Origin: a virus
DNA length: 15,288 nt
Virus record (IMG/VR): IMGVR_UViG_3300043447_000376
Location: 1-15,288 of that record
Direction: 5' to 3' (one strand)
Every line of letters begins with the position of its first letter. Within the stretch, counting starts at the first letter, position 1. Under the pieces are notes generated by a model. That model made no database searches, was not told the DNA's origin, and saw only the letters and a program-made list of their open reading frames with translations. This document shows positions 1 through 15,288 of the stretch, one piece after another. Made by a program: the position numbers and the translations under genes.

Positions 1-122
1 ATCTTGTATTTACATTGAAGTCAGCAAAGAAGTTTTCTGTATTTGATAGATTAATTAGTGACCACTTTTGTGGATCAAGCAATGAGGTTATTGATTTTTC
101 TGATTTCCAATAAGTTCCAGCA
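1..122. repeat. Left copy of an exact 122-bp terminal direct repeat (identical to 15167..15288). It implies a unit genome of 15,166 bp.
   Basis: Base-by-base comparison: atcttgtatttacattgaag...taagttccagca is present at both window ends. Confidence 0.95.
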
Positions 123-1999
123 TTATATCCATCAGTAACGTATACAGCATTTATCTTTCCATTGTTAGAAATTAAGCTATCAGCAGCTCTTGTCAAATAA
201 TTGTCAATGCCATTAAATACCCAAATGCCATTTTCTTCAGTCTTAATTTGGTTAGTAAGAAGAACTCTATCGCCGTTATTTAGCACAATACCGCTGAACA
301 TTATGTCAGATCTTGGACCAACAAATCTCTTGAATCCAGTAAGCTCTGTATTGTCAACGCTATCTAGTCCTCTAGACTTTGGATTTGTTTGTAACGCACT
401 TGCAGAAAGTCCTAGTCCAGTTGCAGCTATATAAGCCTCTTCTGTATTTGCAAAGAAGACTGAGCCTGGACCATTTACCAAAACATTGTCATTAAGTGCA
501 ACACGAACGTCTTGAAGAATGTTCAACTCTTCTTTGTTAATCTTAATGTCATTGTTTAGAGTTTCTGTAGAACTACCATTTAGTACGTGAGTAATGCTAA
601 ATGTTTCTACTTGGAAATTATTATCAAGCTCAACACCAAACTTTCCAGTTTCAACTAGGTTATTCCAGAATAGTCGTAATGCCTTTTTTGAGTTTGTTGA
701 GATTTCTGGAGACACCATTTCTGCATTAACATTTACAGTTTTTGCAAACTTCTTTGTTTCTTTTCTCCACAAACGCATTCTTCTTTTAATCTCATATTGA
801 GAAATTGGAATATTGATGCCATGTGCAAATGTGTGAATAGCACCGCTAAAGCCATTTACTGAATAAAAGTCCGACGATACTGCTAATTTAAATAGGTCGT
901 TGTCTGATGCAATATCATTGATTCCAACAGTTGCTCCAGTTCCAAGACCCTGACCATAATCAGTAAAAGTTGATCCTGGAACAAGTCCACGAACATCCAT
1001 ATTATTTTCAATATCAACATCATTTTCAAGATAGTTATATACAACGTCTTTTACATTGTTAAATAGCCACTTAATTGTTGGGTAAAAGATTTGATACTCA
1101 TTAACCTTGTCATCAAAACGCTTATCTAGTTGACCATCTACCCAAATTTCAACAAACTTCTTGTTAAACTTGACTCCGTTTGTTTTAATAAGTCCAGGTC
1201 TTCCAAAATTAATAACAATGTGGTGCCAAGTATTATCTGCAACGTTTTCATTGCCAACAAAAAGATAATTTACATTATCTCTATTAAAATCATCATAATA
1301 TTCAATAGCAAGTTTTCCATCTTTAATAATTATGTTCAGATTAATTAACGCACCATCAAAACTATCTGAACGATAGTATGGGTAGTGTTCTGATACCAAA
1401 GATTTTGGAGACATGGTATCGCCAGTTGAAAGAGTTGAAATGGATGCACCATTATCCATTGATGCTCCAAAGGTCCACAGTATTGCGTCCAGGTCAGCAG
1501 CGTCAAGCTGAGAAGAACCAGATGCAACGATACAATTTTGCTTATTTGTTTTAATTGTAAATTCAACATATCCAGATCTAAAGAAGTTAACTTGTTCTGC
1601 CAATTGTGGGCCACCAAGAACAGTTGATGCAGCCTTATTGATATGCATAAGTGTATCTGCATTAACAGATATTGTAGCCTCATCAGAATTAACAGTTCTT
1701 GCGGTAGAAAGTGAACCAATATATTCTGCCCTACCACCAGGTGATCCATAAGCTGCAAAAGAAACTGCTGGAGATAGATTTGTCAAAATCTTATCCTTGA
1801 ATGGCGTATAAGTTGTTCCTGAAGGATTTTGTAGATTTAGCAAATAGTCGTCAGACTCGCCAGGCAAAATAGGAAATGAAAAGTCATAGATAAATCTATT
1901 CTTTGTGCCGTGAAGTTTCTGAGTTTCCCATTGGTCAAATTGAAAGAATGTGTTCTTTTCACTAAATCCAGTAGGATCATTAAATTTTTTCTCTATCAT
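1..1999 (-). CDS. 666-aa tail-fibre-like structural protein with one LamG/concanavalin-like domain and a C-terminal GDRVLL...NGIW module. It is missing from the ORF track because it runs off the left edge.
   Basis: Manual translation from ATG 1999..1997 (MIEKKFNDPTGF...) stays open for 666 codons down to base 2. SD-like GAGAGG lies upstream, and the start overlaps the preceding stop as TAATG. The stop codon TAG is completed only across the circular junction (base 1 plus 15166..15165). LamG-type signature: NTWHHIVINFGRPG...FVEIWVDGQ. Confidence 0.85.
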   Translation of the reverse strand, partial: MIEKKFNDPTGFSEKNTFFQFDQWETQKLHGTKNRFIYDFSFPILPGESDDYLLNLQNPSGTTYTPFKDKILTNLSPAVSFAAYGSPGGRAEYIGSLSTARTVNSDEATISVNADTLMHINKAASTVLGGPQLAEQVNFFRSGYVEFTIKTNKQNCIVASGSSQLDAADLDAILWTFGASMDNGASISTLSTGDTMSPKSLVSEHYPYYRSDSFDGALINLNIIIKDGKLAIEYYDDFNRDNVNYLFVGNENVADNTWHHIVINFGRPGLIKTNGVKFNKKFVEIWVDGQLDKRFDDKVNEYQIFYPTIKWLFNNVKDVVYNYLENDVDIENNMDVRGLVPGSTFTDYGQGLGTGATVGINDIASDNDLFKLAVSSDFYSVNGFSGAIHTFAHGINIPISQYEIKRRMRLWRKETKKFAKTVNVNAEMVSPEISTNSKKALRLFWNNLVETGKFGVELDNNFQVETFSITHVLNGSSTETLNNDIKINKEELNILQDVRVALNDNVLVNGPGSVFFANTEEAYIAATGLGLSASALQTNPKSRGLDSVDNTELTGFKRFVGPRSDIMFSGIVLNNGDRVLLTNQIKTEENGIWVFNGIDNYLTRAADSLISNNGKINAVYVTDGYNAGTYWKSEKSITSLLDPQKWSLINLSNTENFFADFNVNTR

Positions 2000-4900
2000 T
2001 AGGCTACCTCTCTTGTAGGATAAATTCCATCTATTTCAGTTGCTCTTAGCCATGCAGCCCAAGGACTTGTTAGATTGTACATTGAAATTGGATAATTAAA
2101 TGTATTTGTTGTAACAGTAATACCATTAATATAATTATTTGCCAACTTAATTGTTGCCTCCATTGGACCACCAGGAATAGTGATTCGTACACCAGCACTG
2201 TTAAATATTGCAGTTGCTACCATTATATCAGCGATTATGTTAGCAGGCGATGATATAGCTCCACCGTTCATTTGAGCAGATGCTGTCAATGAAGTTGCAT
2301 TAATAGAGATATTTCTAATTGCTGACACAGAAGCATCTGGTGACTCAGATTCAGCTAATGCCCAGTCAGCAGTGTAATTTACAGATGTGCTGGTTGTTGC
2401 AGCGGTTGCCAATGCAGTTGCTGTTATAGGAGATGTAGTAATAACCTTGTTGGTCTGACCAGGCATCATTCCATATAGATTAGAAACAAGTGTCTGAGAA
2501 GCAGAAGTCTTTGCCCAAATTACCTCGTCTACATAAATAATAGTATTTGTTGGTGCAACTGGCAATGATGTAGAGCCAAATGGAGTAATCAAACATCCAA
2601 CAGAAAGTCTTGGATGGTTGTTTGCCTCATCGTTAGCTGGTACAGAGACGGTACCATTGACTGTGGTTCCGTTGTATGTTCCAAGCTGTACTGTCATAAT
2701 ATCAACACCATCAATAAATAGGTTTACACGATTATTTGAGCCAGTGTGATCAAATGCCACTACAACGAAGTGTCTCAATCCATCAAATAGGTTATAGTTT
2801 GAAACTGTTGCCTGATCAATGTATGATCCAGAACCATTGTTAAACTGCAAGTGTAGTTTGTTCTGATATTGATACAAAATTACATGCTGGTTATCATAGT
2901 GTCCGTTTAGGTTCCAAAGAACTCTTAGACCAGTAGAATTATCTTCATCAGCTTTTCTAAACCAGAATGATGAATGGTAATTGTTTAGGCCAGTTCCCCA
3001 GGTATCATTGTATTCAGATTCCTTTAGGATTACTCCGTCAGTAATGTATGATGTTCCAGCTGTCTTGGCAGACTTACCGTTAATGCCAAAATCGGGGTTG
3101 ACGACTGTACCACCAATAGTTACAGGAGCAACTGCATAATCATTGTCTGAGCCATAGTCAAGGAATGAGTTGCTTCCATCAAAAGTTACATAACGATATG
3201 GATTTACATTTGCCATCACATAGTTGTAATATGTATCACTTAATGCAAAGGCATTGTTAGATTCAGCATACGCAATTAACGTTTCTGCAATGCTTGTATT
3301 TCCATATTTTGTAGAAGATTGAACAATTGTTGCAGAAGCAGTAAGCACATCTGCTGCAATATTGTTACTTACCCCAGCAACCACTGTAGCAGATACAATT
3401 AATGCAGAAGCTGTTGCAGCAGTTATTTCTGGAGTAGCATTTGAGTTGACAACAAAATTGTGTGTTCCAGATTGAACAGAAGCAGTCACTGGTGATGGGA
3501 AAATAGTCTTATCTGGAGAAAGAACATTTATAAATGAATAGTGATCAATAATTGTGCTATTGGATAATGCAGATCCATAAATGGCAAATTCATCAACGTA
3601 ATCAGCAGTTGCAATATTATCGCCAGATTGACCTGCAAAGAAATTATCCCATGTTGCTGATGTAAATGATGATGGATTAAGGGTGTCAGTAATAGATCCA
3701 GCAATAGATCCATTTAGATACCAAGATGCAACAAATTCGTTTGTTCCAGAACCTGGAGCAACTCTAACAACATAGTGATTCCAGTCATTGTTTTTATATA
3801 ATGCAGAATTATCTATATATGCTTCTGTTATATATTGACTACCGCCATCTTCAGGCCAATTCGGATTAGTTCTACTAACAAGTCTTGAAATTGTTATTCT
3901 TGATTTAGAAATAGATATATTTCCAAATCCTGCAACTACTTGATCTTCACCCTTAGACCAAACTTCAACGGTAAAGTTTCTTGATGCAACTAAATCTGAA
4001 ATGTCAGATGATGCAGTTGGGTAAATTCTAAAACGGTTTGGGGCATTTGTATAATTTCCAGTACCTGCCCAAGACAGACCAGCACCAACAAGCCCCATAT
4101 CTCCGCCAGATGCCTGTCCAGTGGACATTGTAGATCCTTTGTCATATGAAGCAATAGACATTGTTCCATAATTTGCACCAGTAGCTGTATCAAAATTAAA
4201 GTAGTAGACTGGATTAGATTGCTTAACTAATGCATAGTAACTTGGTGTTACATAAACAGTATGGTTACCAGATTCAGCAGATGCTGTGAGTGCTGCAATT
4301 GGAAGAACTGGTTCAATAATTTCTGCAGTAGCAGTCATTTCTAGTGCTGACCAAGATATATCAGATCCAGTAGAAATATCAACATTATTAATCATCTCAA
4401 TAGATGCTATGAGGGTTGTTGGACCAAGTACTTGTACATATTGTTCTGCCACAACTGCAATGTTTGTTGGCAAAATAGCATTAACTAAAATTGATGTAGT
4501 AATTTCAACATGATCTCCAGCTGTAACTGCAATAGTTGGGTCAGCAAGATCTGCTGAGGCAGTTATTGGGGTTGCTGTGTATGACACGTTTGTTGCATTA
4601 ATTCTTGCATCCCAAATCTGAGAAATTGCAGTAGCGTCAATTGCTGAATATGGAGCAATATAGTAATCAGAAATTTCAAATGTTGTCAATACGCCAGAGT
4701 CTGTGGTAGAACCTCTTGTTGAAGTTCCAAACTGGCTATATGCAGTACCAGTTGTTGTTGTTCCAAGTAGGTCATAAATAAAAACACCGTCTATATAAAC
4801 TTCAGTGTGATATCCAGAACCATCAATAAATGATCTTTGTGCAACATAGTGCCATTCCTGATCATCAACACGATTAGTAGAATATACTGTTCCACCAGTT

Positions 4901-5337
4901 GAAACAGTCAATGTAAGCTTTCCAAGATTTCCAGATGAGCCATTTAACTGAGTTGTCATCGCTCTACCCATACCACCAATCTGAGCGATCATTATATTTG
5001 TGTTATAGGTTTTTCCTGTTTCGTATGTAAAGTTTGTTTTAAACCAAAAACCCAATGAATAGTTACCATCTGTAAGCGGTACGTTAGCAGCAAGAACATT
5101 GCTAAACATTCTGTACATGGTAGTAGTCAAATCATTTGTGCCATTACCAACATTGATTGCCCAAGATCCGTCACCATGCACACCGCCAGTTGCATTTCTT
5201 ACTGGTGCTTCATTTGTAAGTGTAAATGTTGCAGTACCAGATGTACCGCTATTTGTAGGAGTAAGTGAATATGCACCATTAAATCTTACATAAGTTTCTG
5301 GTGAGTAGCTTAAAATTTTGTCTGATAAATTGCTCAT
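1999..5337 (-). CDS. 1112-aa large virion or tail protein with three LamG (Laminin_G_3-like) domains separated by Ala/Thr/Ser-rich linkers.
   Basis: ORF track entry. The LamG signature recurs three times: SLGFWFK...EWHYVA...YIDGV (aa 8-243), NDWNHYVVRVAPG...WYLNG...VDEFAIYGSALS (aa 366-600), and SSFWFRK...RHFVVVAFDH...LFIDGV...VDEVIWAK (aa 702-955). There is no SD, and a T7 run lies immediately upstream of the ATG. Confidence 0.85.
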   Translation of the reverse strand: MSNLSDKILSYSPETYVRFNGAYSLTPTNSGTSGTATFTLTNEAPVRNATGGVHGDGSWAINVGNGTNDLTTTMYRMFSNVLAANVPLTDGNYSLGFWFKTNFTYETGKTYNTNIMIAQIGGMGRAMTTQLNGSSGNLGKLTLTVSTGGTVYSTNRVDDQEWHYVAQRSFIDGSGYHTEVYIDGVFIYDLLGTTTTGTAYSQFGTSTRGSTTDSGVLTTFEISDYYIAPYSAIDATAISQIWDARINATNVSYTATPITASADLADPTIAVTAGDHVEITTSILVNAILPTNIAVVAEQYVQVLGPTTLIASIEMINNVDISTGSDISWSALEMTATAEIIEPVLPIAALTASAESGNHTVYVTPSYYALVKQSNPVYYFNFDTATGANYGTMSIASYDKGSTMSTGQASGGDMGLVGAGLSWAGTGNYTNAPNRFRIYPTASSDISDLVASRNFTVEVWSKGEDQVVAGFGNISISKSRITISRLVSRTNPNWPEDGGSQYITEAYIDNSALYKNNDWNHYVVRVAPGSGTNEFVASWYLNGSIAGSITDTLNPSSFTSATWDNFFAGQSGDNIATADYVDEFAIYGSALSNSTIIDHYSFINVLSPDKTIFPSPVTASVQSGTHNFVVNSNATPEITAATASALIVSATVVAGVSNNIAADVLTASATIVQSSTKYGNTSIAETLIAYAESNNAFALSDTYYNYVMANVNPYRYVTFDGSNSFLDYGSDNDYAVAPVTIGGTVVNPDFGINGKSAKTAGTSYITDGVILKESEYNDTWGTGLNNYHSSFWFRKADEDNSTGLRVLWNLNGHYDNQHVILYQYQNKLHLQFNNGSGSYIDQATVSNYNLFDGLRHFVVVAFDHTGSNNRVNLFIDGVDIMTVQLGTYNGTTVNGTVSVPANDEANNHPRLSVGCLITPFGSTSLPVAPTNTIIYVDEVIWAKTSASQTLVSNLYGMMPGQTNKVITTSPITATALATAATTSTSVNYTADWALAESESPDASVSAIRNISINATSLTASAQMNGGAISSPANIIADIMVATAIFNSAGVRITIPGGPMEATIKLANNYINGITVTTNTFNYPISMYNLTSPWAAWLRATEIDGIYPTREVA
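2222..2230 (-). promoter_or_regulatory. Internal copy of TGATATAAT, a possible promoter for the 666-aa gene.
   Basis: Plus-strand attatatca gives TGATATAAT on the minus strand, 223 nt upstream of ATG 1999 and inside the 3' end of the 1112-aa ORF. Confidence 0.35.
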
Positions 5338-5346
5338 AAAAAAAGA

Positions 5347-5568
5347 CTACGCCAATACAGACGTAGCCATTCCTCCTACCAAATTAAAGTCTGGGTTAAT
5401 TGCATTGAGGCTATGGCCATTAATGCTAAGTGGTGCTGGAGTGAAGCAAGACCAAGATGAGATTACCAAACTAACACCTGTGTTAATTTCAGTTTTAACA
5501 CAAGCAATCTCAATCATTTCAGCCTTTAGGCTGACTGAAAATGGTCCTGCTTCAACTCCAACGTTCAT
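5347..5568 (-). CDS. 73-aa hypothetical protein (MNVGVEAGPFSV...). It ends in a TAG that is in frame with the 1112-aa ORF.
   Basis: ATG 5568..5566 overlaps the upstream stop as TAATG. The frame is open for 73 codons. No homology was recognised. Confidence 0.5.
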   Translation of the reverse strand: MNVGVEAGPFSVSLKAEMIEIACVKTEINTGVSLVISSWSCFTPAPLSINGHSLNAINPDFNLVGGMATSVLA

Positions 5569-6002
5569 TATGCTACTGTGATCCTTACGATACCTGTAGC
5601 GTCCCAAGTAATAGTAAAGTTACCATTGCTTGAAGACTGGTCTGAACCAAAGTCAACATAACCAATAAGTGGCTTTGTTGCGTTAGTTGCAGGTGTTGCA
5701 TCGTAAATAACTGCATAGCGAGCAGTAATTGTAGACGAAGACCAAGTTACGTCATCAGCATCAAGTGTAATAACATTTGTTGACGAGTTGTAAGAGTTGG
5801 TCTTGTTTGCGAGGGTAGCTCCACCAGCGGTGTAGCCAGTTCCAGTAACTTCGTTTGCAACAACATCATCAAGATAGTTGTGTGCATCCTGGTCTGGAGT
5901 GTATGCGTTGGTGAGAAGAGCCACCTTAATGGTGTCTGTATCCCAGTCAATTTCTTTGTTTAGTGCCTGTGATAGGAACTGTCCGTATAGTTTGCTAGCC
6001 AT
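5568..6002 (-). CDS. 144-aa conserved phage structural protein, possibly a head decoration or head-proximal protein.
   Basis: ORF track entry. SD GGGGAGA lies 6 nt upstream. The gene sits immediately downstream of the capsid gene. The sequence pattern (IDWDTDTIKVALL...GTGYTAGGATL...DADDVTW...ITARYAVIY) looks like a family I have seen next to capsid genes, but I cannot name its function. Confidence 0.75.
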   Translation of the reverse strand: MASKLYGQFLSQALNKEIDWDTDTIKVALLTNAYTPDQDAHNYLDDVVANEVTGTGYTAGGATLANKTNSYNSSTNVITLDADDVTWSSSTITARYAVIYDATPATNATKPLIGYVDFGSDQSSSNGNFTITWDATGIVRITVA

Positions 6003-6015: not shown

Positions 6016-6918
6016 TTAAGCCGCAGCTGTCTTCTCAACGACTGCGAATGCATCAGCGTCAGCAACAGCGAATGCACGACGGATACGAGTCTTAAGAAGA
6101 ACTCCGTCAGTGTCAAACTGTGCGTCACGTGATACAACAGACTCTACGCCTGAGCGAACACCGTTGATCATCATGTTACGGTTACCAACAATAAGTAGTG
6201 GGTTACCAGTAGGTGCATCAGTTGCAGCAGCAGATGTAGCAGCACCGTATGAAACAACTAGTGGGTAACCGAATAGGCTTCCAGGAGTTGCTGCAATTGG
6301 GTTAGGAAGAACTAGCTGACCAGTTCCATCTACCATTCCACGAAGAGCTGCAAGCATCTTAGGGTGTGCAATGAATACAGTGTTAGCTGCATCAAAGTAC
6401 TGGCTGTCTTCTACGATACCAAGAGCAGCGTTGATGTCAGCGAATGACAAGTCTCCACCAGTCTGGATAAGGTTTGAACCAGAGTTTAGCTGTGATACTG
6501 CACGGTAAACAGAAGTGAACGGCTGACCGTCATCACCATCTGCAGCTGCAGTTACACCTAGACAAGCGTTGTCGAACTTACGTGCGAAACGGCTAGCCCA
6601 CTCAGACTTGTAAACAGAAAGTGTGTCTACTAGTGAGTCGTTTACGTCTTCCTCAGAAATGTGGAAGATCTTTGCATACTTCTTTGCTGTCAGTACGATC
6701 TCGTCAAGAGTAGCAGAAGCCTCTGGAATTGTTGCACCTTCGGCAACAACTTCTGGAGCATCTGCAACAAAGCGAGGGACTGACTTAGTGCGAGAAGCCA
6801 TTGCTTCTCTACGAGCAAACGATTCTACAGCAGAGTTTGCAAGAAGTGCCTGAATTACAGACGATCCTTGCTCTTCTAGGATGTAGCCGTTTGCCTCTGT
6901 TAGGTCAATACGAGCCAT
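6016..6918 (-). CDS. Major capsid protein (HK97-fold type), 300 aa.
   Basis: ORF track entry with a strong SD (AAGGAGA). It follows the scaffold gene, has the typical size, and contains motifs such as LTAKKYAKIFHISEEDVNDS. It has its own upstream TGATATAAT promoter. Confidence 0.8.
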   Translation of the reverse strand: MARIDLTEANGYILEEQGSSVIQALLANSAVESFARREAMASRTKSVPRFVADAPEVVAEGATIPEASATLDEIVLTAKKYAKIFHISEEDVNDSLVDTLSVYKSEWASRFARKFDNACLGVTAAADGDDGQPFTSVYRAVSQLNSGSNLIQTGGDLSFADINAALGIVEDSQYFDAANTVFIAHPKMLAALRGMVDGTGQLVLPNPIAATPGSLFGYPLVVSYGAATSAAATDAPTGNPLLIVGNRNMMINGVRSGVESVVSRDAQFDTDGVLLKTRIRRAFAVADADAFAVVEKTAAA

Positions 6919-7017: not shown

Positions 7018-7026
7018 ATTATATCA
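7018..7026 (-). promoter_or_regulatory. Extended -10 promoter TGATATAAT upstream of the capsid gene.
   Basis: Plus-strand attatatca lies in the 112-bp scaffold-capsid intergenic gap and is a member of the 6-copy motif family. Confidence 0.6.
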
Positions 7027-7030: not shown

Positions 7031-7480
7031 TTATTTAATTTTGCCCAAGATTTTTGCAGCCTGCATCTCGCTTGCTGAGAATCTTGTGCTTACTGTTGCC
7101 TGAATGGCAGCATCAGCCTGACCACCAACACGAAGCTTTGGATCAAATACTTCTGGTAGATCTTGCTTTAGTTCTTCAATCTGATCTTCAAATCCAATCA
7201 AATCAAAATTTTCATCAAGAGATAGATTTTCCATCTTTACGAACTTCATGACTCTTTGTGGGTCCTTAATTCCTTCAGATGCAATCTTTTGTGCAATCTT
7301 CTCTTGAATAAGTTTATTTGTGTAGACATTTATAGCCTGATCCTTGCTTGCAAGTACAGATTCTAGAGATTCCTTCTCTTCCCTGAATTTCTTAGCATCA
7401 TTCTTAGCACGGTCAAGGGCAGCAAGTACTGCCTTTGGATCTTCTATAACTGTTTCATTTTCCTGGATGTCATTTTCCAT
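7031..7480 (-). CDS. Scaffolding protein, 149 aa.
   Basis: Acidic, helical, coiled-coil-like sequence located between the portal and capsid genes. SD AGGAGG is present, and the start overlaps the portal stop as TAATG. Confidence 0.7.
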   Translation of the reverse strand: MENDIQENETVIEDPKAVLAALDRAKNDAKKFREEKESLESVLASKDQAINVYTNKLIQEKIAQKIASEGIKDPQRVMKFVKMENLSLDENFDLIGFEDQIEELKQDLPEVFDPKLRVGGQADAAIQATVSTRFSASEMQAAKILGKIK

Positions 7481-8820
7481 TAGTTGCCTCCTGTTTGTTC
7501 CATTATGACATTATTTGTATTGGTATTCTGAGACAAATCAGTCAGAGCATTCTCTGCAGCAACGATTCGCTGTGCGATTTCAAGGTCATACCCCATCTCA
7601 AGCAATACCTGTTCTAATGATACACCAACTACACGCTTCTTCACTGCAACTTCCCAAGCATCTAGGCTGTCCATAGATTCTACTGACTGCCACTTAACCT
7701 GGACATCAGAGTTGATTCCTTCTACCTTTAGAACAAATCTAAACATATCTCTCCATGTGTTACCAAATGAAATTTGGCGATCTTCTACCTTCTTAAGTAG
7801 TGGAGATTCTGCTGTACGAAGTGCTTCACCAGATGGCACGTTGCCAGTCTTTTCAAAATAGTGAAGTGGTGTATTTGTAATTGAAGCCATTGAGCGTACA
7901 AAGTCCTTAACTGGCTCTGTAAATACCTTGTGATCAGCTGGTGAGAATTCGCCAACCTTGCTAACGCCCTTTAGGTACCAAAGCTCTCCTGGACCATTTC
8001 TTAGCTTGCCAAGATTTTCAGCTTCTGCTGCATCATCATCAAAGTCTTCAAATTCTGCTGAGTTTCCGCCACCTGAAAGTGCATATCTTTGAGGAGCACC
8101 CTGGTAATCAACGGTAGTCATGTGAGTAACGATAAGCTTATTAATTGCATCCTGTGGACCAAACGCATCAGCGTGTTCTGGTCTACCGTACTGCTTTGCT
8201 GTTCTAAAGTGGAAGATTGGAACCTCTCCCCATGGATTGTCAATTGTTTCAACTAGCTTAAAGCTAGATGCAGACACAATGTTTTCAATTTCTCCAAATG
8301 CAGCATACTTTTCAATACGGTCTGGGTAGTACATGTTAAGCTTTGCAATCTTCTTGCCCTGGCTATCTTCTGTTTGCCAAAGCTTTGCACCAAAACGCTT
8401 AATACGAGGATTTTCGTCATCATAGATAACAACTGTAGTTAGTGGTGAGTTATAATCAATAGTTGTCTTACCATTTACATCAGTCCATACGATAGCATAG
8501 GCATTTACATATACTAGAGCACGGCGGTGAATCTCATCAGCATCCAGCACTAGATCGTTTGTTTCCCAAATTTTGTTGATTTCCTGATTTGCTGAGTCTG
8601 TTGTTCCAAAAATATTTGCAATCTCAAGACGGTTAAGTACTGAGTCAACAACGGTTCTTGCAAAGTTAAATCTAAAATCGCTACCTGCGTTTGTTAGTAG
8701 CTTGTACCATCTTTGGTTTGGGAATACCTCTGAGTTGGTACCTTCGTAGTATGCTTCTGCTGTAAGATAGTGATTCCTGCTATCTACGATTGCATCTATA
8801 GCCTTTTTAATATCAGACAT
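7480..8820 (-). CDS. Portal protein (SPP1 gp6-like size and N-terminal pattern), 446 aa.
   Basis: Lies directly downstream of the large terminase, with SD AAGGAGA. The N-terminal ...YLTAEAYYEGT... pattern is typical of portal families. Confidence 0.8.
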   Translation of the reverse strand: MSDIKKAIDAIVDSRNHYLTAEAYYEGTNSEVFPNQRWYKLLTNAGSDFRFNFARTVVDSVLNRLEIANIFGTTDSANQEINKIWETNDLVLDADEIHRRALVYVNAYAIVWTDVNGKTTIDYNSPLTTVVIYDDENPRIKRFGAKLWQTEDSQGKKIAKLNMYYPDRIEKYAAFGEIENIVSASSFKLVETIDNPWGEVPIFHFRTAKQYGRPEHADAFGPQDAINKLIVTHMTTVDYQGAPQRYALSGGGNSAEFEDFDDDAAEAENLGKLRNGPGELWYLKGVSKVGEFSPADHKVFTEPVKDFVRSMASITNTPLHYFEKTGNVPSGEALRTAESPLLKKVEDRQISFGNTWRDMFRFVLKVEGINSDVQVKWQSVESMDSLDAWEVAVKKRVVGVSLEQVLLEMGYDLEIAQRIVAAENALTDLSQNTNTNNVIMEQTGGN

Positions 8821-8821: not shown

Positions 8822-10321
8822 TTATCTCCTTAAGTAATTTACCTGTTTTGCTTCTAGTTTCACTGCTTTATTGTCCAAAAAGTACAAAATGCCTGAAACT
8901 ACAGCATCTAGCACGTCTTCGTGGCTTACCTTTGGGAAAGACCACATCTGCTCTTCTAGCACTGGGAAATGGGCTGTGTGCCTTACCTTACCCTGTTGAT
9001 AGAAGTTCAAAGCCTTACCTGCACGGATCTGCTTTGATAGGTGTTGAGATTTTGATCTATATTTGGCAGGAACGTTCTTAAAAACATCCTTCCATAGGTC
9101 ACCACCTTGGTTAACCTCAACATAAACCACCCCAACGCCAAATGTGTCTACTAGATAGGCTACTCTTTCAGCCATATCTGAAGGAGACATTTTGACTTGT
9201 TCTGCATGTCTGACATAAACATTCGTTTTACCGTTTTCATCAATACCTTTTGACAAAACTGCAATTCCTGTATAGTCAGAAACCTTATTTTTTGTTACTG
9301 CTGGGTCAATAGAGATAATGGTGTTTCCATAGTCTTCTATTTCTTCTATAATTATATCTTCATTTGTCCAGAATGTGCCATCTGTGTTGACTGGACGGTT
9401 CATGTAGTTCTTAGCAAAGTCACGAAGGTGTCTCTGGCTCTGAAGCCACTCTAGTGACCATTTCTCAGGCCATACAGATCTTTCTGTACCATCATCGTTC
9501 TGCATGATAGCTGGATAGTAGTGAGCATTTACATTCTGCTCATCTACCCAATTAAGTTCAATATCATCATATCCTTCTGCCTTCTTGCGGAATTGGTCCA
9601 TTACAGAGTTAGGCATAGTAGTGGTACCCACAAAGATCATACGTGCGTATATATTCATAGGTGCGATATCATCAAATACTGTGTTCTTCTGCTGCCCTGC
9701 TTGATATTCAGAGTAGTTCTTTTCACCCTTTTCAATATCGTCAAGAATAATTAGGTCTGGACGCTGTCCAAATACCTTCTTACCAAGCGAGTTGGTGTCA
9801 ATACCATTAGCGTCAAAGATAAAGTCGTTAGACTGGATAATACGCCACGCATTGCTTGCCATAGCCCTTCCAGAAGACGCTACAAGCTTAGGCTTGCATA
9901 GATCAGGATAGTCAGCTTGAAGCAATTCGTTGGATTCAAGTTCGTTTTTAAATGTCATCAAGTGAGTTTCGGCCTGGGATGCAGCGTCTGAGAAAGCGGC
10001 GATAAACTTCACATGTCCATGACAGGCAGCCCACATTGGCAAAATAAGGAAAATCCAAGTAGATTTACCACATTCACGTGGAGCGATAAAGGCATCTCTA
10101 TTCTCCTTTGGATTCTTAGGCTTGCTAATCCATGATTTGCCATATTCTGCTAGATCAACATGGAATTCAGACAATGTTATCTGTCCATGAGCATTCATAA
10201 GGTGATGTGGCAAGTAAGTTAAGGCGAAAAGTAGAGGATCGTACTTTGTTAGCTCTTTTCTACCCTCAGAAAAAGTTAAAAGCTCAACTGGAACGTTCTC
10301 TAGCACCTCTTCTATGTTCAT
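8822..10321 (-). CDS. terL: Terminase large subunit, 499 aa.
   Basis: Walker A APRECGKST (about aa 80-88), Walker B LIILDDIE, and a C-terminal nuclease-type ISIDPA motif. SD AAGGA is present, and the gene sits immediately upstream of the portal. Confidence 0.9.
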   Translation of the reverse strand: MNIEEVLENVPVELLTFSEGRKELTKYDPLLFALTYLPHHLMNAHGQITLSEFHVDLAEYGKSWISKPKNPKENRDAFIAPRECGKSTWIFLILPMWAACHGHVKFIAAFSDAASQAETHLMTFKNELESNELLQADYPDLCKPKLVASSGRAMASNAWRIIQSNDFIFDANGIDTNSLGKKVFGQRPDLIILDDIEKGEKNYSEYQAGQQKNTVFDDIAPMNIYARMIFVGTTTMPNSVMDQFRKKAEGYDDIELNWVDEQNVNAHYYPAIMQNDDGTERSVWPEKWSLEWLQSQRHLRDFAKNYMNRPVNTDGTFWTNEDIIIEEIEDYGNTIISIDPAVTKNKVSDYTGIAVLSKGIDENGKTNVYVRHAEQVKMSPSDMAERVAYLVDTFGVGVVYVEVNQGGDLWKDVFKNVPAKYRSKSQHLSKQIRAGKALNFYQQGKVRHTAHFPVLEEQMWSFPKVSHEDVLDAVVSGILYFLDNKAVKLEAKQVNYLRR

Positions 10322-10605
10322 TATTGTCCTTTGTTGATATGGTCAATAAGCAATTTGTAAATCATGTCAATCTTTTTGTCCATTTCTTTACGAATTACTT
10401 CAGCTTGAGCCATTTGGCTATTAAGATCTCCAAATTTACCCTCAAGACGATTGACCTGGTCCTTGATTGAGCTACCCCCATTTGGTCTAAGCTCTTTTAG
10501 ATATTCTTCTATCTTCTTGAATAGCATTCTTATCCCTGCTACTAGAGCTGCACCTACTGCACCTATCATAGATACAATGGCTGCAATGATTTCTGGATTG
10601 TTCAT
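10321..10605 (-). CDS. 94-aa protein with an N-terminal transmembrane helix and a coiled-coil tail, a holin-like or membrane-anchor candidate.
   Basis: The hydrophobic segment IIAAIVSMIGAVGAALVAGI is followed by a charged helical region. Both ends are TAATG-coupled. Confidence 0.65.
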   Translation of the reverse strand: MNNPEIIAAIVSMIGAVGAALVAGIRMLFKKIEEYLKELRPNGGSSIKDQVNRLEGKFGDLNSQMAQAEVIRKEMDKKIDMIYKLLIDHINKGQ

Positions 10606-10775
10606 TATATCCCATACCCCATTTTGAATTTGCTGGAAATATTATTTTGAGACAGCAAAATTAGCAAATCAGAAACAATCTTAGTAGTGGGTACCCCCCT
10701 AGCCACAAAGCCTGACAAATTATCCAAATTGACATTGCCAAATAGTTTCATATTCGTTATCAAATTGTTATACAT
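10605..10775 (-). CDS. Small hypothetical protein. It is 56 aa from ATG 10775, or up to 72 aa from the track start at 10823.
   Basis: The frame is stop-free between the TerS-like gene and the next gene, and its stop overlaps the next start as TAATG. No start candidate has a good SD. Confidence 0.4.
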   Translation of the reverse strand: MYNNLITNMKLFGNVNLDNLSGFVARGVPTTKIVSDLLILLSQNNISSKFKMGYGI

Positions 10776-11238
10776 TGTTATCAATGTTTTCCTTTGTCTT
10801 CTCATTACGAGCTTTGGCTTCATTCAATAGATCTATAATAGCCAAATCAGTATTATCCTTATTTCTCTGTTCATTGATAGCAGTTGACTTACCTTCAATA
10901 AGATTGATAGTCTGAATAGCCTTATGTACAGCATTAGCCAATTTGTTTAGTTCATCAGGATCTAGTGTACTTTCCATTAGTGTTTCAACACATCTATCTA
11001 GCACTGTCTGTGCAGCTATTAGCTTTTCTTTATCTGAATAGAATACCCTGAGATCTACCGCCATTTTTGCCAGGGTATCCATAGTTGGCAAATCTACATT
11101 TCTTTGCTCAAACCATTTCTTAGCTGTGTGATAGCTCTTAGGATATCCCAAATTGCGGATAGCTGGTCCAATACCCATTTCTTGAGCAACTTCAATAAAA
11201 TTCTCAATTTGTTCTTCTGTGAATGCTGAATATCCCAT
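10768..11238 (-). CDS. Putative terminase small subunit or DNA-binding protein, 156 aa.
   Basis: SD GGAGG is present. The N-terminus is HTH-like (EEQIENFIEVAQEMGIGPAIRNLGY) and is followed by a helical oligomerisation-like region. The gene lies upstream of terL. Confidence 0.55.
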   Translation of the reverse strand: MGYSAFTEEQIENFIEVAQEMGIGPAIRNLGYPKSYHTAKKWFEQRNVDLPTMDTLAKMAVDLRVFYSDKEKLIAAQTVLDRCVETLMESTLDPDELNKLANAVHKAIQTINLIEGKSTAINEQRNKDNTDLAIIDLLNEAKARNEKTKENIDNNV

Positions 11239-11310: not shown

Positions 11311-11508
11311 TTATAGATCTGTCCAAAATTCAGGTTCTTCATCATCTTCTGGTTCATCAAATAATCCTTCTATAATTTTACTCAAATTGTCATCTACCAA
11401 CATAGTAATACCAATGTCTGTGTTAGATGTCTTATTCATAAAAGATATCACAAATGAGAGTTGTTTGTTCTTATACTCTAGATCTTTAGCATATGGGAAT
11501 AGTAACAT
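11311..11508 (-). CDS. 65-aa protein with a highly acidic C-terminus (EPEDDEEPEFWTDL), function unknown.
   Basis: ORF track entry. It is the first ORF after the promoter at 11557..11565. The SD is weak. Confidence 0.5.
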   Translation of the reverse strand: MLLFPYAKDLEYKNKQLSFVISFMNKTSNTDIGITMLVDDNLSKIIEGLFDEPEDDEEPEFWTDL

Positions 11509-11575: not shown

Positions 11576-11621
11576 AAGAATGGAAAAAGGGGAAGGCTAA
11601 GAGGTGACCAAAACCTTCCCC
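11576..11621 (-). terminator. Rho-independent terminator.
   Basis: On the minus strand, GGGGAAGG (11621..11614) is followed by a 17-nt loop and CCTTCCCC (11596..11589), then TTTTTCCATTCTT. The 8-bp stem is GC-rich and is followed by a U-run. Confidence 0.75.
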
Positions 11622-11692
11622 AACTCCTGAGCCCTATGGTGGGTATGAGAGACATCAGGCTCATACTCACTAGGCAACCAGTGAGATACTTA

Positions 11693-11701
11693 ATTATATC
11701 A
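11693..11701 (-). promoter_or_regulatory. TGATATAAT motif whose TGA is the stop codon of the HNH gene.
   Basis: Plus-strand attatatca. The motif is followed by three hairpins and the terminator at 11576..11621. Confidence 0.45.
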
Positions 11702-12325
11702 CTTATTCTTTGCTTTGGACTTCTTAGTAATATTAGTCCAGCAAGGCTTACAATAGCTCAAATGACCATCAGGAGAACCTGATCTCTTACCAAATTGAGA
11801 TATTGGTTTCTTGTCATTACACTTTGCACAAGTCTTGCTATCTCTATGGATGGTTGGACCATTGACCATACGCTCATCATACTTAGCTCTATTCATAGTG
11901 TTCATGCATTGCTTACAGTATGTCTGTCTTCCATCAGATAGCCTTGATGACTTATGGAAATCATCTATATGCTTTGATATATTACATTTAATACATAGCT
12001 TATTCATACTTAAATCTTTTCTACTCAAATAATCTTTGTTTGCCCTGGTTTTTTTAATGTGACATGACTTACAAAGTGTCTGAAGGTTGCTAGGCTTATT
12101 GTTAGACTTGTTACCATCTATGTGATCTACTTCAAGCGATCCCTTATTTTCTGGCATTTCATAACAAATCTCGCATTGGTTTTTCTTAAATTTTCTAGCT
12201 TCAACAATGCATTTTTTACATGCTGTACCAAATACCTGTTGACCTTTAGTGTTTCTTCCTTTTGATAGAGTTGGATATTGTCCACACTCACACATTGTTC
12301 TTACTAGTAACCCTGTTGTTGCCAT
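11699..12325 (-). CDS. HNH endonuclease with several CxxC zinc-ribbon modules, 208 aa.
   Basis: HNH core: EVDHIDGNKSNNKPSNLQTLCKSCH. It is flanked by CECG...CKKC and CEIC, plus two C-terminal repeats of the form CxKCN..K.I..F.K.....DG....YCKxC. SD AGGAGA lies 8 nt upstream. Confidence 0.85.
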   Translation of the reverse strand: MATTGLLVRTMCECGQYPTLSKGRNTKGQQVFGTACKKCIVEARKFKKNQCEICYEMPENKGSLEVDHIDGNKSNNKPSNLQTLCKSCHIKKTRANKDYLSRKDLSMNKLCIKCNISKHIDDFHKSSRLSDGRQTYCKQCMNTMNRAKYDERMVNGPTIHRDSKTCAKCNDKKPISQFGKRSGSPDGHLSYCKPCWTNITKKSKAKNK

Positions 12326-12449
12326 TTCTTATTTCTCCTGTTATCATTCCGATTTCTTCTAAAATACCGTCGCAATGCTCTGTGCTTGCATCTAGAAGAA
12401 CTGTTCTGCATTTTTCACACCAAAAGACTGTCGTCTCTATATCTTCCAC
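12288..12449 (-). CDS. Possible 53-aa small protein (GTG start) with a CEKC...HC half zinc-ribbon.
   Basis: AAAGGAG lies 6 nt upstream of GTG 12449. It would be the first ORF after the promoter at 12492..12500. It overlaps the HNH start by 38 nt and is too short to appear in the ORF track. Confidence 0.3.
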   Translation of the reverse strand: MEDIETTVFWCEKCRTVLLDASTEHCDGILEEIGMITGEIRNGNNRVTSKNNV

Positions 12450-12491
12450 CCATTACTCCTTTGGTTATAAGTCCCCTTAAGACCTATAATA

Positions 12492-12500
12492 ATTATATCA
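12492..12500 (-). promoter_or_regulatory. Extended -10 promoter TGATATAAT. A second perfect TATAAT lies at 12515..12522 (TGTATAAT).
   Basis: Plus-strand attatatca in an AT-rich stretch, about 40 nt upstream of the first SD of the HNH operon. Confidence 0.6.
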
Positions 12501-12559
12501 TATCTTTTTAACATATTATACATTTTTTATCTATTTCTTATTTATTTTAGATATAGTTT

Positions 12560-12860
12560 TATTCCCCCCCAGTGCCTAGGAACATGTTCCGCTGGTGAGT
12601 TTTTCTTCCTGATTACGATATCAACCTCCCAGTCACACGTTGATACCCTTGGGGCTACATACCAAATATATGTAGATCTTTAATTATTTTGCTTGTCAAG
12701 GGCTTGGGAAAGACGGTAAACCAATAAAATCGGACAAATCAGGACATGCCAGAAGTTTGCCTCTTGACCACCGCTGTTGAATTAGGTAAAGCGTACCCTT
12801 ACTTCTCGTACTTCCCTGTGGCTGGGAGCTTGTGCTTGCTACGAGAGTGCTTTCTTGTTG
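12560..12860. other. Structured non-coding region, a candidate ncRNA and/or replication or packaging origin.
   Basis: No ORF on either strand. Several stem-loops are present: 12619-12625/12639-12645, 12655-12661/12669-12675, and nested 12804-12810/12840-12846 with 12811-12815/12824-12828. There is also the 12-bp palindrome GGAACATGTTCC and a C7 tract. Confidence 0.4.
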
Positions 12861-12867
12861 CTTTATA

Positions 12868-12876
12868 AGTATATCA
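12868..12876 (-). promoter_or_regulatory. Variant motif TGATATACT (extended -10-like) embedded in the inverted repeat AAGTAT-N3-ATACTT.
   Basis: Plus-strand agtatatca. The palindromic arms are 12867..12872 and 12876..12881. It lies directly downstream of the 12887..12929 hairpin. Confidence 0.45.
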
Positions 12877-12886
12877 TACTTTTATG

Positions 12887-12929
12887 ACAAATGCAAAGAG
12901 GACCTAGTAGCAAGCACGTTACTAGGTCC
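12887..12929 (-). terminator. Probable intrinsic terminator at the end of the structural operon.
   Basis: Perfect 10-bp stem (12900..12909 pairs with 12920..12929) with a 10-nt loop. On the minus strand it is followed by CTCTTTGCATTTGT, a moderate U-tract. Confidence 0.55.
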
Positions 12930-12969
12930 CCTAAATGACAACACACCAGGTCATAAACCTAGTACATCT

Positions 12970-12978
12970 ATTATATCA
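12970..12978 (-). promoter_or_regulatory. TGATATAAT motif whose TGA is the stop codon of the 94-aa gene.
   Basis: Plus-strand attatatca. The predicted start near 12963 would give a transcript of about 75 nt ending at the 12887..12929 hairpin. Confidence 0.45.
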
Positions 12979-13260
12979 GATTTTATAAATTGCTTTGAGA
13001 GCTGAGGTGGCAATCTTAGCAGTCATATATGCTTGTTCCATAATTTGATTGCCAGCTTCTACCGTTTCACTCATAAATGACTGATAAGGCTGTGGATCAA
13101 CAGGCTGCCAGCCATCTGATGGATCTGCCTGAGCATTTTTCTCAAAATTTGGGATAAAAGTATCATTTAGGACAGTTTCCTGACCCTCATTAACAATCAT
13201 TCCCTGCATTACAGCTATTGCTTCATTTAGTGCAGATTCTATAATGCCAAATGGATCCAT
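12976..13260 (-). CDS. 94-aa hypothetical protein, the last gene of the structural operon.
   Basis: ORF track entry. Its start overlaps the upstream stop as TAATG. Confidence 0.6.
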   Translation of the reverse strand: MDPFGIIESALNEAIAVMQGMIVNEGQETVLNDTFIPNFEKNAQADPSDGWQPVDPQPYQSFMSETVEAGNQIMEQAYMTAKIATSALKAIYKI

Positions 13261-13589
13261 TACAATTCACCCTGGAACTTTGTAGCCTTCATTCTGTAGC
13301 TCTCAATATTATTAAAAGCATTTAGAACTGGTTCTAGACCAACAATAAGCCAGGATGTATCGTCAAGAATAAGGTTGTTCTCTGAGTCCTTTATATCTTT
13401 AATTACTGAATTGATTGGAATTGGCTGTTCGCAACGAATTCCCATTCTACCGCTGATATCAAGACCAGCAGTAATTGGAACGGTACCAACAAAGTAGTAC
13501 TTAGTTACTTCAGTGCTTCCAGTCTTTTCAACAACAGGCTTGTAAAAATCACCAGAGTATTTGTGTCTAGCATATGCCATTGGCTTCAT
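13260..13589 (-). CDS. 109-aa putative head-closure or head-tail joining protein.
   Basis: I prefer ATG 13589 (MKPMAYARH...) to the track start at 13604, because GGAGAA lies 9 nt upstream and the ATG overlaps the upstream stop as TAATG. The function call rests on position after the adaptor and on size only. Confidence 0.6.
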   Translation of the reverse strand: MKPMAYARHKYSGDFYKPVVEKTGSTEVTKYYFVGTVPITAGLDISGRMGIRCEQPIPINSVIKDIKDSENNLILDDTSWLIVGLEPVLNAFNNIESYRMKATKFQGEL

Positions 13590-13981
13590 TAGATGGTTCT
13601 CCAATCAGAACTATCAGTCAATTGTGACACTTTACCAGTTTTAATTGATCTTGAACGCATAAAACTCAATTTTGCACAAATCATTACTGCCATTGGGGCA
13701 ATGAAAGGAGAAATTGAATCCCCTTGCTTGAATGAAGTATAAGCGTCATTCTGACCAGTTGTAGAAACTGCCATTTGTTCAAAAACAATGTCTTCGTTGT
13801 TCAACATGTACGCAGCTTGATATGCTACTGCACGTTTTAGTACTTCTATGTCTTTTGTATTTGCGACTTCCGACTCAAATTTACCAACATAGGCTTCAAT
13901 TGCATATTGTGCACGTTGAACTAGATCAGCTTTAACGATCTTGCCAGTAATTGTTTTTACTTCAGTTATATTAGCAAACAT
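13589..13981 (-). CDS. 130-aa head-tail connector or adaptor (gp6-like).
   Basis: I prefer ATG 13981 (MFANITEVKTITG...) because it follows AAAGGAGAAGAA. The N-terminal pattern ITEVK....V.ADLVQRAQYAIEAYVG resembles head-tail connector families. Confidence 0.6.
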   Translation of the reverse strand: MFANITEVKTITGKIVKADLVQRAQYAIEAYVGKFESEVANTKDIEVLKRAVAYQAAYMLNNEDIVFEQMAVSTTGQNDAYTSFKQGDSISPFIAPMAVMICAKLSFMRSRSIKTGKVSQLTDSSDWRTI

Positions 13982-13994
13982 TTCTTCTCCTTTC

Positions 13995-15098
13995 CTATTC
14001 TGCCAACCATTGTAGTCCAAGCCATGTCATTGACAAGACTGGGATTTGTTGTGTTGGGTAAATTTCTTCAGATTCAGTTGGGTATAGGTCAGACTGGTAA
14101 TCTGTGTTATTTCTAACCGTCTCTGAAGTAATAATACCATTGGATGAATTGGTTGGTGCCTGAATTAGTGGGCCACCACCACCATTTGTAGGAATTACCT
14201 GACCATATGGAGTGACATCCTTAATATTAATTCTTCTTGGTGCTCTATTTAATCTACTTGTTGAATACTGCCAAGCTCTTGTTGATGTGGTTTCATTAAC
14301 AACATCATTTGGAACAACCTGAATTGTTGCCTTGTTGTATTCTTCACGACTCATTGTTAGTGAATCCTCAACACAGTTTACAAAGATTTTTCCATTTATT
14401 GGATAGTTTCCAAGCAATTGACCATCATGAACAACAATTGTTGTAGCGTAATCATCAAATTCATTAACAACTAGATTTGATCCATGGTAATGATTATTTG
14501 CAAGACTTGTTACAACAGTTCCAGCAATCACATTATTAGGAGCAACTGCATGAATGTTTTTTGTTCCACGAGCATTTTGTCTAAATCCAGGAATAGAATC
14601 ATTCTCTGTTGACTGTCTTAGTGCTAGAGATGGAATTATAAACTCATTACCTTCTTGCAAACCAAATTGACGATAAGAGTATTTTGCGTGATATTCTTCA
14701 TAGTCATACGTGTTTTCTGGAAGATAGTTAATAAACTCAGCAAGCACCCATGTTTCCTTGTCAGTAAGTCCAGGAATTGCTGTGTCAAGGTGGTATGAAT
14801 TCTGTCTGTGAGTATCAAAATATCTTTCAGCTGGTTCATCAAACTGGAATGGATTTACTACAGCAGCTCTTCCATCGCCAATCTCAACCTCTTGAGGTAT
14901 AGAAGAGTATTGCTTTACAATTCCAAGATCTTCTGCAAGTTTTGGACTTGAAACAAATAGGCTTGCACCATTTGCAGCAGCAAGCTTAAGGGATTCAAGG
15001 AATTCTGCATATCTATTTAGTATTTCTGACTGTGGGTCATTTGGGAACATCTCAAAGATTTGTTCATTGTACTCTGGATAGTTAACAAAAGTGACCAA
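13995..15098 (-). CDS. 367-aa putative tail-associated structural protein. Its frame stays open upstream to 15164 and is in frame with the 666-aa ORF through a TAG.
   Basis: ORF track entry (TTG start with no SD). The first ATG is at 15050, also without an SD. The ORF ends in TAG. No family was recognised. Confidence 0.7.
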   Translation of the reverse strand: MVTFVNYPEYNEQIFEMFPNDPQSEILNRYAEFLESLKLAAANGASLFVSSPKLAEDLGIVKQYSSIPQEVEIGDGRAAVVNPFQFDEPAERYFDTHRQNSYHLDTAIPGLTDKETWVLAEFINYLPENTYDYEEYHAKYSYRQFGLQEGNEFIIPSLALRQSTENDSIPGFRQNARGTKNIHAVAPNNVIAGTVVTSLANNHYHGSNLVVNEFDDYATTIVVHDGQLLGNYPINGKIFVNCVEDSLTMSREEYNKATIQVVPNDVVNETTSTRAWQYSTSRLNRAPRRINIKDVTPYGQVIPTNGGGGPLIQAPTNSSNGIITSETVRNNTDYQSDLYPTESEEIYPTQQIPVLSMTWLGLQWLAE

Positions 15099-15164
15099 GT
15101 CATAACTAGATAGATCAATATCAGAGTTAATATCAATAAATCTGTCTTCGCCACGGTAGTTTTT

Positions 15165-15288
15165 CTATCTTGTATTTACATTGAAGTCAGCAAAGAAGTT
15201 TTCTGTATTTGATAGATTAATTAGTGACCACTTTTGTGGATCAAGCAATGAGGTTATTGATTTTTCTGATTTCCAATAAGTTCCAGCA
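15165..15288 (-). CDS. Duplicate C-terminal 40 codons plus the TAG stop of the 666-aa gene, the same gene as 1..1999 seen across the junction.
   Basis: 15167..15288 equals 1..122. The reading frame ...FADFNVNTR is followed by TAG at 15167..15165. Confidence 0.85.
   Translation of the reverse strand, partial: AGTYWKSEKSITSLLDPQKWSLINLSNTENFFADFNVNTR
15167..15288. repeat. Right copy of the 122-bp terminal repeat, either circular-assembly overlap or terminal redundancy.
   Basis: Identical to 1..122. The junction lies inside an ORF, which favours a circular or permuted genome over fixed physical ends. Confidence 0.95.

Follow-up and report, generated by a model that had tools for sequence, protein, structure and literature searches.

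A 15.2-kb environmental virus genome that probably represents a helper-dependent, integrase-less satellite of the MiniFlayer type

We analyzed IMG/VR record IMGVR_UViG_3300043447_000376 over its whole length (positions 1–15,288; hereafter, the window) and conclude that it is probably the complete genome of a helper-dependent satellite virus of the MiniFlayer type, lacking an integrase. A preliminary description of the same DNA had recognized a small tailed-virus genome holding packaging and virion genes only, and had left three options: a minimal phage replicating with host machinery, a helper-dependent element, or an element resembling a gene transfer agent (GTA). The second of these is backed by gene-by-gene synteny with MiniFlayer, a satellite defined by experiment (PMC10690885). 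All genes and non-coding intervals below are on the minus strand; the terminal overlap is given without strand.

A tblastn search of 50,697 phage records with the large terminase subunit (TerL) placed two Streptomyces satellites at the top, MulchRoom (14.8 kb) and MiniFlayer (17.4 kb). Nine genes of the window are syntenic homologues of MiniFlayer genes, with 21–72% amino acid (aa) identity. Among these, the encapsidation genes are 34–47% identical to those of MiniFlayer by blastp (E 1e-22 to 1e-165), with their order kept. TerL itself (8822–10321) is 46% identical to MiniFlayer TerL and 53–54% identical to that of MulchRoom, and it also matches phrog_38 (E 5e-70) and Terminase_6C. The small terminase subunit (TerS, 10768–11238) shows 34% identity to its MiniFlayer counterpart over 153 aa (E 1e-28), along with a weak match to phrog_6299 (E 0.0036). 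An SPP1 gp6-like portal (7480–8820; 44%; phrog_104, E 1.5e-70; PF05133), a scaffolding protein (7031–7480; 35%; PF06810, phrog_194) and a major capsid protein (MCP) of the HK97 fold family (6016–6918; 47%; PF05065, E 4e-27; phrog_10) complete this set. Four further homologues belong to the neck and fibre region. A 144-aa protein is 72% identical to MiniFlayer gp6, and a 367-aa open reading frame (ORF) matches residues 896–1257 of gp8 at 26%. A 143-aa head-to-tail adaptor (13589–14020; phrog_22288) is 46% identical to MiniFlayer gp10 and 32% identical to MulchRoom gp6, both annotated as adaptors. A 114-aa neck protein (13260–13604), which is kept in relatives, is a weak homologue of gp11 (21%, E 6e-5). 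These matches, and Pfam and PHROG scans of all 17 minus-strand proteins of the window, support the earlier assignment of HNH, TerS-like, TerL, portal, scaffold, capsid and adaptor proteins, that of TerS through its weak PHROG match and its 34% identity to MiniFlayer.

MiniFlayer (OQ357865) could not be purified away from its helper, Streptomyces phage MindFlayer, and made up 73% of the reads (deCarvalho et al. 2023, PMC10690885). It lacks a primase and an integrase, forms 42-nm capsids bearing short fibres that attach to the helper at its neck, and has a terminal repeat of 1,057 bp that includes terS (PMC10690885). The window shares with it a genome in the 15–17-kb range and the order terS, terL, portal, scaffold, MCP, gp6, small ORF, giant LamG protein, adaptor, gp11. 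Both encode an HNH nuclease, and both lack an integrase, a primase or polymerase, tRNAs, and recognizable lysis or tail-tube genes. The two differ in base composition, with 46.7% G+C for MiniFlayer (71–72% for its host genome) versus ∼37% for the window. MiniFlayer has one fibre protein of 1,376 aa, whereas the window has two fibre genes of ∼1,100 aa each. Counterparts of gp12, gp13 and gp17–gp25 are missing from the window, as is any gp13-like gene with iterons, and its HNH gene and non-coding hub lie directly upstream of terS. Nor does the window have a homologue of gp9, annotated as 'tail fiber', although a second environmental branch does.

Comparison with other satellites sharpens this placement. 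As in the virulent, helper-riding Flayer subtype, the window is devoid of an integrase or lysogeny module (Pfam and PHROG scans; 24 near-complete relatives), and it has an adsorption module, minus gp9, between the capsid gene and the adaptor, with matches to gp6 and to the C-terminal part of gp8. MulchRoom (OQ784832) and Ando (PMC13587820) resemble the window in TerS, TerL (53–54%), portal, scaffold, MCP and adaptor, in an EndoVII-type nuclease, and in a size of 13–15 kb. Those satellites are temperate, however, with a tyrosine integrase, regulators and Lsr2, whereas the window carries no lysogeny genes. They also lack a fibre module and use the tails of helper siphoviruses, in contrast to the large fibre module seen here. 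Capsid-forming phage-inducible chromosomal islands (cf-PICIs) are likewise satellites with their own HNH, terminase, portal, capsid and head-tail connector genes and small capsids, but they are integrated islands with an integrase, regulators and a primase or replication module, and they have no fibres. We rejected a cf-PICI for the window, which has neither integrase nor primase and belongs to a set of closed free contigs with no flanking host genes. An autonomous small podovirus like phi29 was also rejected, as Pfam and PHROG searches returned no protein-primed DNA polymerase or endolysin.

The same scans of the 17 window proteins gave no polymerase, primase, helicase, initiator, integrase, repressor, endolysin, tail tube or tape-measure protein, and no recognizable nozzle or ejection protein. 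Hence the reported absence of replication, lysogeny, endolysin and tape-measure genes stands. A search for tRNA and transfer-messenger RNA genes in the window was also negative. The sole holin-like or single-gene-lysis candidate is a 94-aa membrane protein encoded between terS and terL (10321–10605). It has one N-terminal transmembrane helix (by hydropathy) followed by a coiled coil, occurs family-wide, and matches phrog_9869 (E 3e-11), with weaker matches to a lipoprotein family (phrog_462, E 7.5e-5) and a holin family (phrog_15431, E 2.6e-4).

The window closes on itself. Positions 1–122 are repeated exactly at 15167–15288, as the preliminary description had noted, leaving a unit of 15,166 bp. 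IMG/VR classes the record as having direct terminal repeats, and CheckV completeness is 100. All ORFs that families or relatives support are on the minus strand and form a continuous series on the closed circle, while plus-strand ORFs are short and have neither kind of support. Coding density is ∼93%, and the only long gap is a 526-nt interval at 12450–12975, in agreement with the single non-coding hub of ∼500 bp described before. The closed contig, the CheckV value and the Pfam and PHROG content thus bear out a complete, one-strand genome restricted to packaging and virion genes. The share of the genome said to lie in three LamG or tail ORFs (∼45%) needs correcting: they occupy 42.5% of the unit, and the three ORFs represent two genes.

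The terminal repeat, by contrast, is not a property of the genome as far as its behaviour across relatives indicates. Closed relatives have overlaps of 123–127 nt at genome positions unlike that of the window. In the window, the site is in the 3′ part of a fibre gene; L004, the nearest relative, has it in the hub, and four other closed relatives have it in the interval between hub and terS. Assemblers leave such overlaps, k-mer-sized and variable in position, on circular or terminally redundant genomes. We therefore read the 122-nt repeat as an assembly overlap and not as a mapped genome end. Five of the six self-closing genomes (L004, L006, L014, L020 and L043, versus the window) open between hub and terS, a clustering that may mark the true ends, which in MiniFlayer flank terS.

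The element is one of many. Scanning IMG/VR with the capsid protein confirmed 253 relatives; the lineage counts at least that many contigs there. Among the best 80 of these, which were kept for comparison, the capsid protein is 74–98% identical and G+C is 33–41%. Their contigs cluster at 14.3–16.7 kb, several self-close through overlaps of 123–127 nt, and none extends beyond one unit (∼14–16.6 kb), the lone 18.5-kb contig being a 16.6-kb unit followed by its own start at 91% identity. The 144-aa protein tells a similar story: at least 120 clusters contain it at 92–100% identity, with contigs that in nearly all cases do not exceed 16.4 kb (the longest ones mostly 15–16 kb) and in no case exceed 21.8 kb. 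Both sets of unit-length contigs indicate that the genome size is real and that the contig is not a fragment. None of the 24 near-complete relatives has an extra ORF of integrase size, and no locus examined has flanking cellular genes. We found no papers on this environmental lineage in the literature searched, the coverage of which was incomplete.

All cultured relatives identified through TerL infect Actinomycetota. The closest cultured relatives of the 144-aa protein do so as well, and homologues of it also occur in Caulobacter and Pseudomonas phages. A host search in 185,579 species genomes gave a single match, L086 (RHCX01000049.1), an 11-kb contig of 34.6% G+C in a metagenome-assembled genome (MAG) of Nitrososphaeria archaeon WBC_8_2A_255. 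This contig carries satellite-family genes throughout and is thus uninformative on the host; its presence in an archaeal MAG probably arose by faulty binning and does not point to an archaeal host.

The fibre region begins with the gene of the 144-aa protein (5568–6002; also phrog_644). An AlphaFold2 model of this protein (predicted local distance difference test score, pLDDT, 98) has a baseplate-type fold. By VIA, it aligned over 130 residues (2.4 Å) with chains of ∼1,000 residues from the baseplates of Klebsiella phage KP1 (9f4a; Z 13.8) and T4 (5iv5_BJ; Z 13.3), the latter of which we take to be the wedge protein gp7. Additional matches were to the 105-residue Bxb1 tail-tip chain 9d93_Ra (Z 11.0) and, at Z ∼6, to A511 gp105 and the phi812 baseplate arm. 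A homologue in Gordonia phages closes the tail module directly ahead of a large ORF. We read the 144-aa protein, on the strength of the model, as a putative docking adaptor for peripheral fibres. Its family comprises 5,912 clusters at 50% identity (E ≤ 0.001) without a Pfam entry, is present in Gordonia, Mycobacterium, Caulobacter and Pseudomonas phages, and includes some tandem duplications of ∼290 aa.

Next comes a small protein (73–86 aa; 5347–5607) in the position of MiniFlayer gp7. Its ORF ends in TAG, in frame with the following gene. We considered programmed TAG readthrough from the 86-aa ORF into the 1,112-aa gene and rejected it. Of 72 relatives, 51 keep the two in one frame, yet two stops occur in 17 of the 51, and the frames differ at the remaining 21 loci; the frame match is accordingly read as shared ancestry and not as a recoding signal. 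The 1,112-aa fibre protein (1999–5337) has concanavalin/LamG-like modules and orthologues that are 29–69% identical, and its gene is the most variable of the family. The preliminary description had called the large proteins LamG fibres. In the window itself, LamG matches in the two giant proteins fall below the Pfam threshold (E 0.002 and 0.03; Laminin_G_2 for the 1,112-aa protein), so this part of the claim holds less well here. It fares better elsewhere, as Laminin_G_3 is strong in the giant fibre proteins of relatives, L026 and L043 included (E 1e-16 to 1e-48), and in MiniFlayer gp8 (E 1.6e-18). The docking-adaptor fold of the 144-aa protein and these strong LamG matches both support an adsorption module.

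The second fibre gene is split by the contig ends. Its N-terminal 666 codons occupy 2–1999; that frame stops at a TAG (15167–15165) and then runs on, in frame, into the 367-aa ORF, which is contained in the 389 C-terminal codons (13995–15167, TAG included). In relatives, the corresponding gene is a single ORF of 1,042–1,076 aa. The TAG aligns with tryptophan in 22 of the 26 relatives having a residue there, and the closest sequence at the DNA level, L005, has TGG. Judged by this alignment, the 666-aa and 367-aa ORFs are one gene, with an intact state of ∼1,056 aa. The stop is found in the window genome only, and the TGG-to-TAG change falls on base 15166, the last unique base ahead of the overlap; thus the contig probably opens at a polymorphic or erroneous site. 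Recoding of this TAG was ruled out, the stop being unique to the window, at the contig junction and in place of a conserved tryptophan. The gene's C-terminal domain is conserved as far as MiniFlayer gp8 (the 26% match noted above). It has no conserved cysteine or histidine. A Foldseek search with its AlphaFold2 model (pLDDT 84.5) gave nothing significant. A wide VIA search gave marginal GATase1/ThuA-like matches (Z 6–7), which we treated as a common fold and not as a function. PDB sequence searches yielded nothing usable for the 144-aa, 367-aa and 1,112-aa proteins, nor for profiles of the adaptor and the 114-aa protein.

Two fibre layouts occur in the family: two genes, as in the window, versus one gene of 1,850–1,950 aa followed by a 111-aa homologue of MiniFlayer gp9. 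The second branch (L036, L043, L068, L071, L072 and L083; e.g. L043:6503–12334 and 12331–12663) has the latter, with 39–53% identity in the gp9 homologue. The tail module of this branch is nearer to that of MiniFlayer than is that of the window.

The hub (12450–12975) is a candidate origin or regulatory region, and stands where relatives have a gene for an O-like initiator. It contains extended −10 motifs at 12970–12978, 12868–12876 (one mismatch) and 12492–12500, the palindrome GGAACATGTTCC, a run of seven G, and an AT-rich stretch with 11-bp periodicity (12522–12548). A block of the hub is shared with L024, and a palindrome within it changes in a compensatory way. The hubs of L004, L024 and other near relatives also keep three extended −10 motifs, the G run and the periodic AT-rich stretch. 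We found no hidden gene: no frame exceeds 61 codons, and the relatives' hub-position proteins had no tblastn match in the window below E 0.01. A structured hub RNA was rejected, as the 362-nt hub transcript folds no better than shuffled sequences (z +0.55). Rfam, searched with the whole window at E ≤ 1, returned one sub-threshold small nucleolar RNA match outside the hub and no family within it. The extended −10 motif TGATATAAT occurs in six exact copies, versus 0.47 expected, all on the coding strand and at operon starts; many relatives also have a copy in the position of the perfect one at 7018–7026, immediately upstream of the capsid gene. Since TGATATAAT is a host-type extended −10 consensus, a helper polymerase is not required for expression.

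Relatives provide a context for the hub. In 19 of the 27 that cover this position, an ORF of 131–211 aa lies between the last structural gene and the HNH gene. The encoded proteins have a winged-helix domain (PF13730), and 17 of 22 match PHROG families annotated 'replication initiation O-like' (best E 1.8e-11). At 0.5–0.7 of their length, these ORFs hold 2–4 iterons spaced 21–22 bp apart (L062:4348–4410, L020:13913–13990, L081:10536–10615, L053:13646–13686 and L086:4467–4510, among others), directly followed by an AT-rich stretch with 12-bp periodicity. The iterons are translated as short peptide repeats (QLSN..., VVKSDE...). Two iteron types, CAGTTGTCCAA and GTAGTCAAATCTGAC, track two subgroups of the winged-helix protein, a pattern that cognate initiator–origin pairs would show. 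The layout is that of the lambda origin inside gene O, with a winged helix, in-ORF iterons and an AT-rich stretch. In contrast to lambda O, the proteins are short (131–211 aa), and no P-like helicase loader is adjacent.

MiniFlayer gp13 probably shares this layout. Annotated as a 368-aa 'hypothetical protein' (OQ357865, 11911–13017), its gene contains repeats spanning 12335–12467, namely 3.8 copies of a 22-bp unit (12335–12416) directly followed by 3.8 copies of a 12-bp unit. An hhalign comparison matches the N-terminus of gp13 weakly to the winged-helix profile (probability 45%, E 2e-4). In a satellite described as having no replication genes, gp13 may be an initiator that escaped notice, its origin embedded in the gene.

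The window has neither the O-like initiator gene nor the iterons; the family types CAGTTGTCCAA and GTCAAATCTGAC are not above chance in it. Both the gene and the iterons are also absent from L004, L024 and other near relatives. From this distribution, it appears that the sub-clade of the window lost the initiator/iteron module, leaving the 526-nt hub in its place. The hub may be an origin or control region served in trans, which is the least secure part of our model. That the hub is a replication origin, as previously proposed, is plausible in light of the O-like gene and iteron origin of relatives at this position. The further proposal that host machinery replicates the genome from the hub is unproven, as the window is without both the initiator gene and the iterons.

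Under the satellite reading, the element would multiply only where a larger helper phage infects the same cell. Lysis would come from the helper and the replication machinery from helper and host together, with the hub of this sub-clade serving as an origin or control region for a factor provided in trans. Unit genomes would be packaged into the satellite's own small capsids, and the fibres would bring it to new cells, either through the host surface or by gripping the helper virion as MiniFlayer does. Several points weigh against this reading. Helper dependence rests on homology and gene absence, and the genome scan named no host, its one match being the MAG contig of satellite genes described above. 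Several small window proteins have no assigned function, and a role as holin or single-gene lysis protein is possible for the conserved 94-aa membrane protein. In addition, 19 of 27 relatives encode an O-like initiator with iterons, so the lineage does have some replication functions and could need no more than host enzymes to replicate.

A tentative elaboration of the satellite reading is possible, though not one that we favour. The lineage may ancestrally have carried a minimal lambda-like initiator–origin cassette, still present as gp13 in MiniFlayer, which the abundant sub-clade of the window then discarded. Of the cassette's site, only the promoter-rich, AT-rich hub would be left, and it would be fired by an initiator borrowed in trans from a helper phage or from sibling satellites.

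The same observations can be arranged around an autonomous minimal tailed phage, among the smallest known, which would replicate with host enzymes from a hub origin (in relatives, with O-like initiator and iterons), lyse cells with the 94-aa membrane protein or an unrecognized small protein, and adsorb by its own short fibres. Host-type extended −10 promoters drive all operons, making a helper polymerase unneeded, and most relatives have a lambda-like initiator and origin. A complete set of head, neck and fibre genes is encoded, and the single-pass membrane protein is conserved and has weak holin similarity. Yet the sole relative that has been studied is helper-dependent, and the window lacks even the initiator. 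Pfam and PHROG recognize no endolysin, tail tube, nozzle or ejection protein, and the neck genes belong to the type with which MulchRoom docks helper tails. On balance, we consider autonomy unlikely.

Less likely still, and by a good deal, is a defective or decaying member of the family that is complemented by intact sibling satellites in mixed infections. The TGG-to-TAG change at a conserved tryptophan, which splits the second fibre gene, would fit this idea, as would the missing initiator gene at a position where 19 of 27 relatives have one. The changed base, however, is the last unique one before the overlap, where a minor variant or an assembly error could account for it. L004, L024 and other near relatives with otherwise intact genes have also lost the initiator, which makes the loss a clade trait and not a sign of recent decay. 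Finally, a GTA-like element, or a piece or faulty assembly of some larger genome, whether phage or cellular, is suggested by the restriction to structural and packaging genes and by the relative binned into an archaeal MAG, but is hardly credible: the window contig closes on itself, dozens of independent assemblies close at 14–16.6 kb with the same gene order, the MAG contig has satellite genes only, and no locus shows flanking cellular genes. The GTA-like option of the preliminary description can be set aside in particular, because the element recurs in many samples as self-contained, closed contigs of unit length.

The remaining features lie mostly around the hub and terS. The last gene of the structural operon encodes an acidic 94-aa protein with no function assigned from Pfam and PHROG scans or from relatives (12976–13260). 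On the other side of the hub, a 53-aa zinc-ribbon ORF (CxxC...HC; 12288–12449) is probably a real gene, because L024 has it joined in frame to the HNH domain. It is followed by a 208-aa protein with an HNH domain and two EndoVII/Lar-like zinc modules (11699–12325; Pfam HNH and HNH_3; PHROGs 5558, 1035 and 2255), which is 31% identical to MulchRoom endonuclease VII and is a probable packaging-associated nuclease. Zinc-ribbon, HNH and EndoVII-like modules are joined in various ways across the family. The window has a free-standing zinc ribbon in another frame and an HNH–EndoVII fusion. L024 (1053–1825) instead joins the zinc ribbon to HNH and keeps EndoVII apart, and two ORFs of ∼105 aa are seen in many relatives. 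Between the nuclease gene and terS, an acidic 65-aa protein with no assigned function (11311–11508) is 37–98% identical in relatives. The spacer between terS and the membrane-protein gene (10606–10767) contains phased ATTTG repeats, a 22-bp repeat (2.1 copies) and the palindrome GGGTACCC, and could be a terminase recognition site. A 72-aa ORF at 10823–10605 is conserved in the nearest relative, L004, only and is doubtful as a gene. The capsid gene has a G+C content of 47.7%, above that of the genome. G+C at third codon positions is 33%, near that of TerL, w10 and w11, and is not raised; codon adaptation or recent transfer was therefore ruled out, and the higher G+C reflects amino acid composition.

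To our knowledge, MiniFlayer is the only described virulent phage satellite, and it is a single soil isolate. The comparison made here indicates that its design, which combines a head of its own with lectin fibres and lacks genes for integrase, lysis and replicase, recurs in metagenomes as hundreds of closed genomes of 14–16.6 kb. Helper-riding or helper-dependent mini-phages may thus be common, and may be miscounted in viromes as ordinary small phages. Most members of the family, probably including MiniFlayer, carry a small O-like initiator with an in-gene origin, and one sub-clade has lost it, so that the family forms a natural series of rising helper dependence. The iterons, the initiator, the docking adaptor and the candidate lysis protein offer experimental handles. 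If the cassette is indeed ancestral, then MiniFlayer-type 'satellite viruses' would not be replication-less. And if the sub-clade of the window did discard it, then a tailed-virus genome would have been reduced to head, neck and fibres, taking dependence one step beyond that of any described phage satellite.

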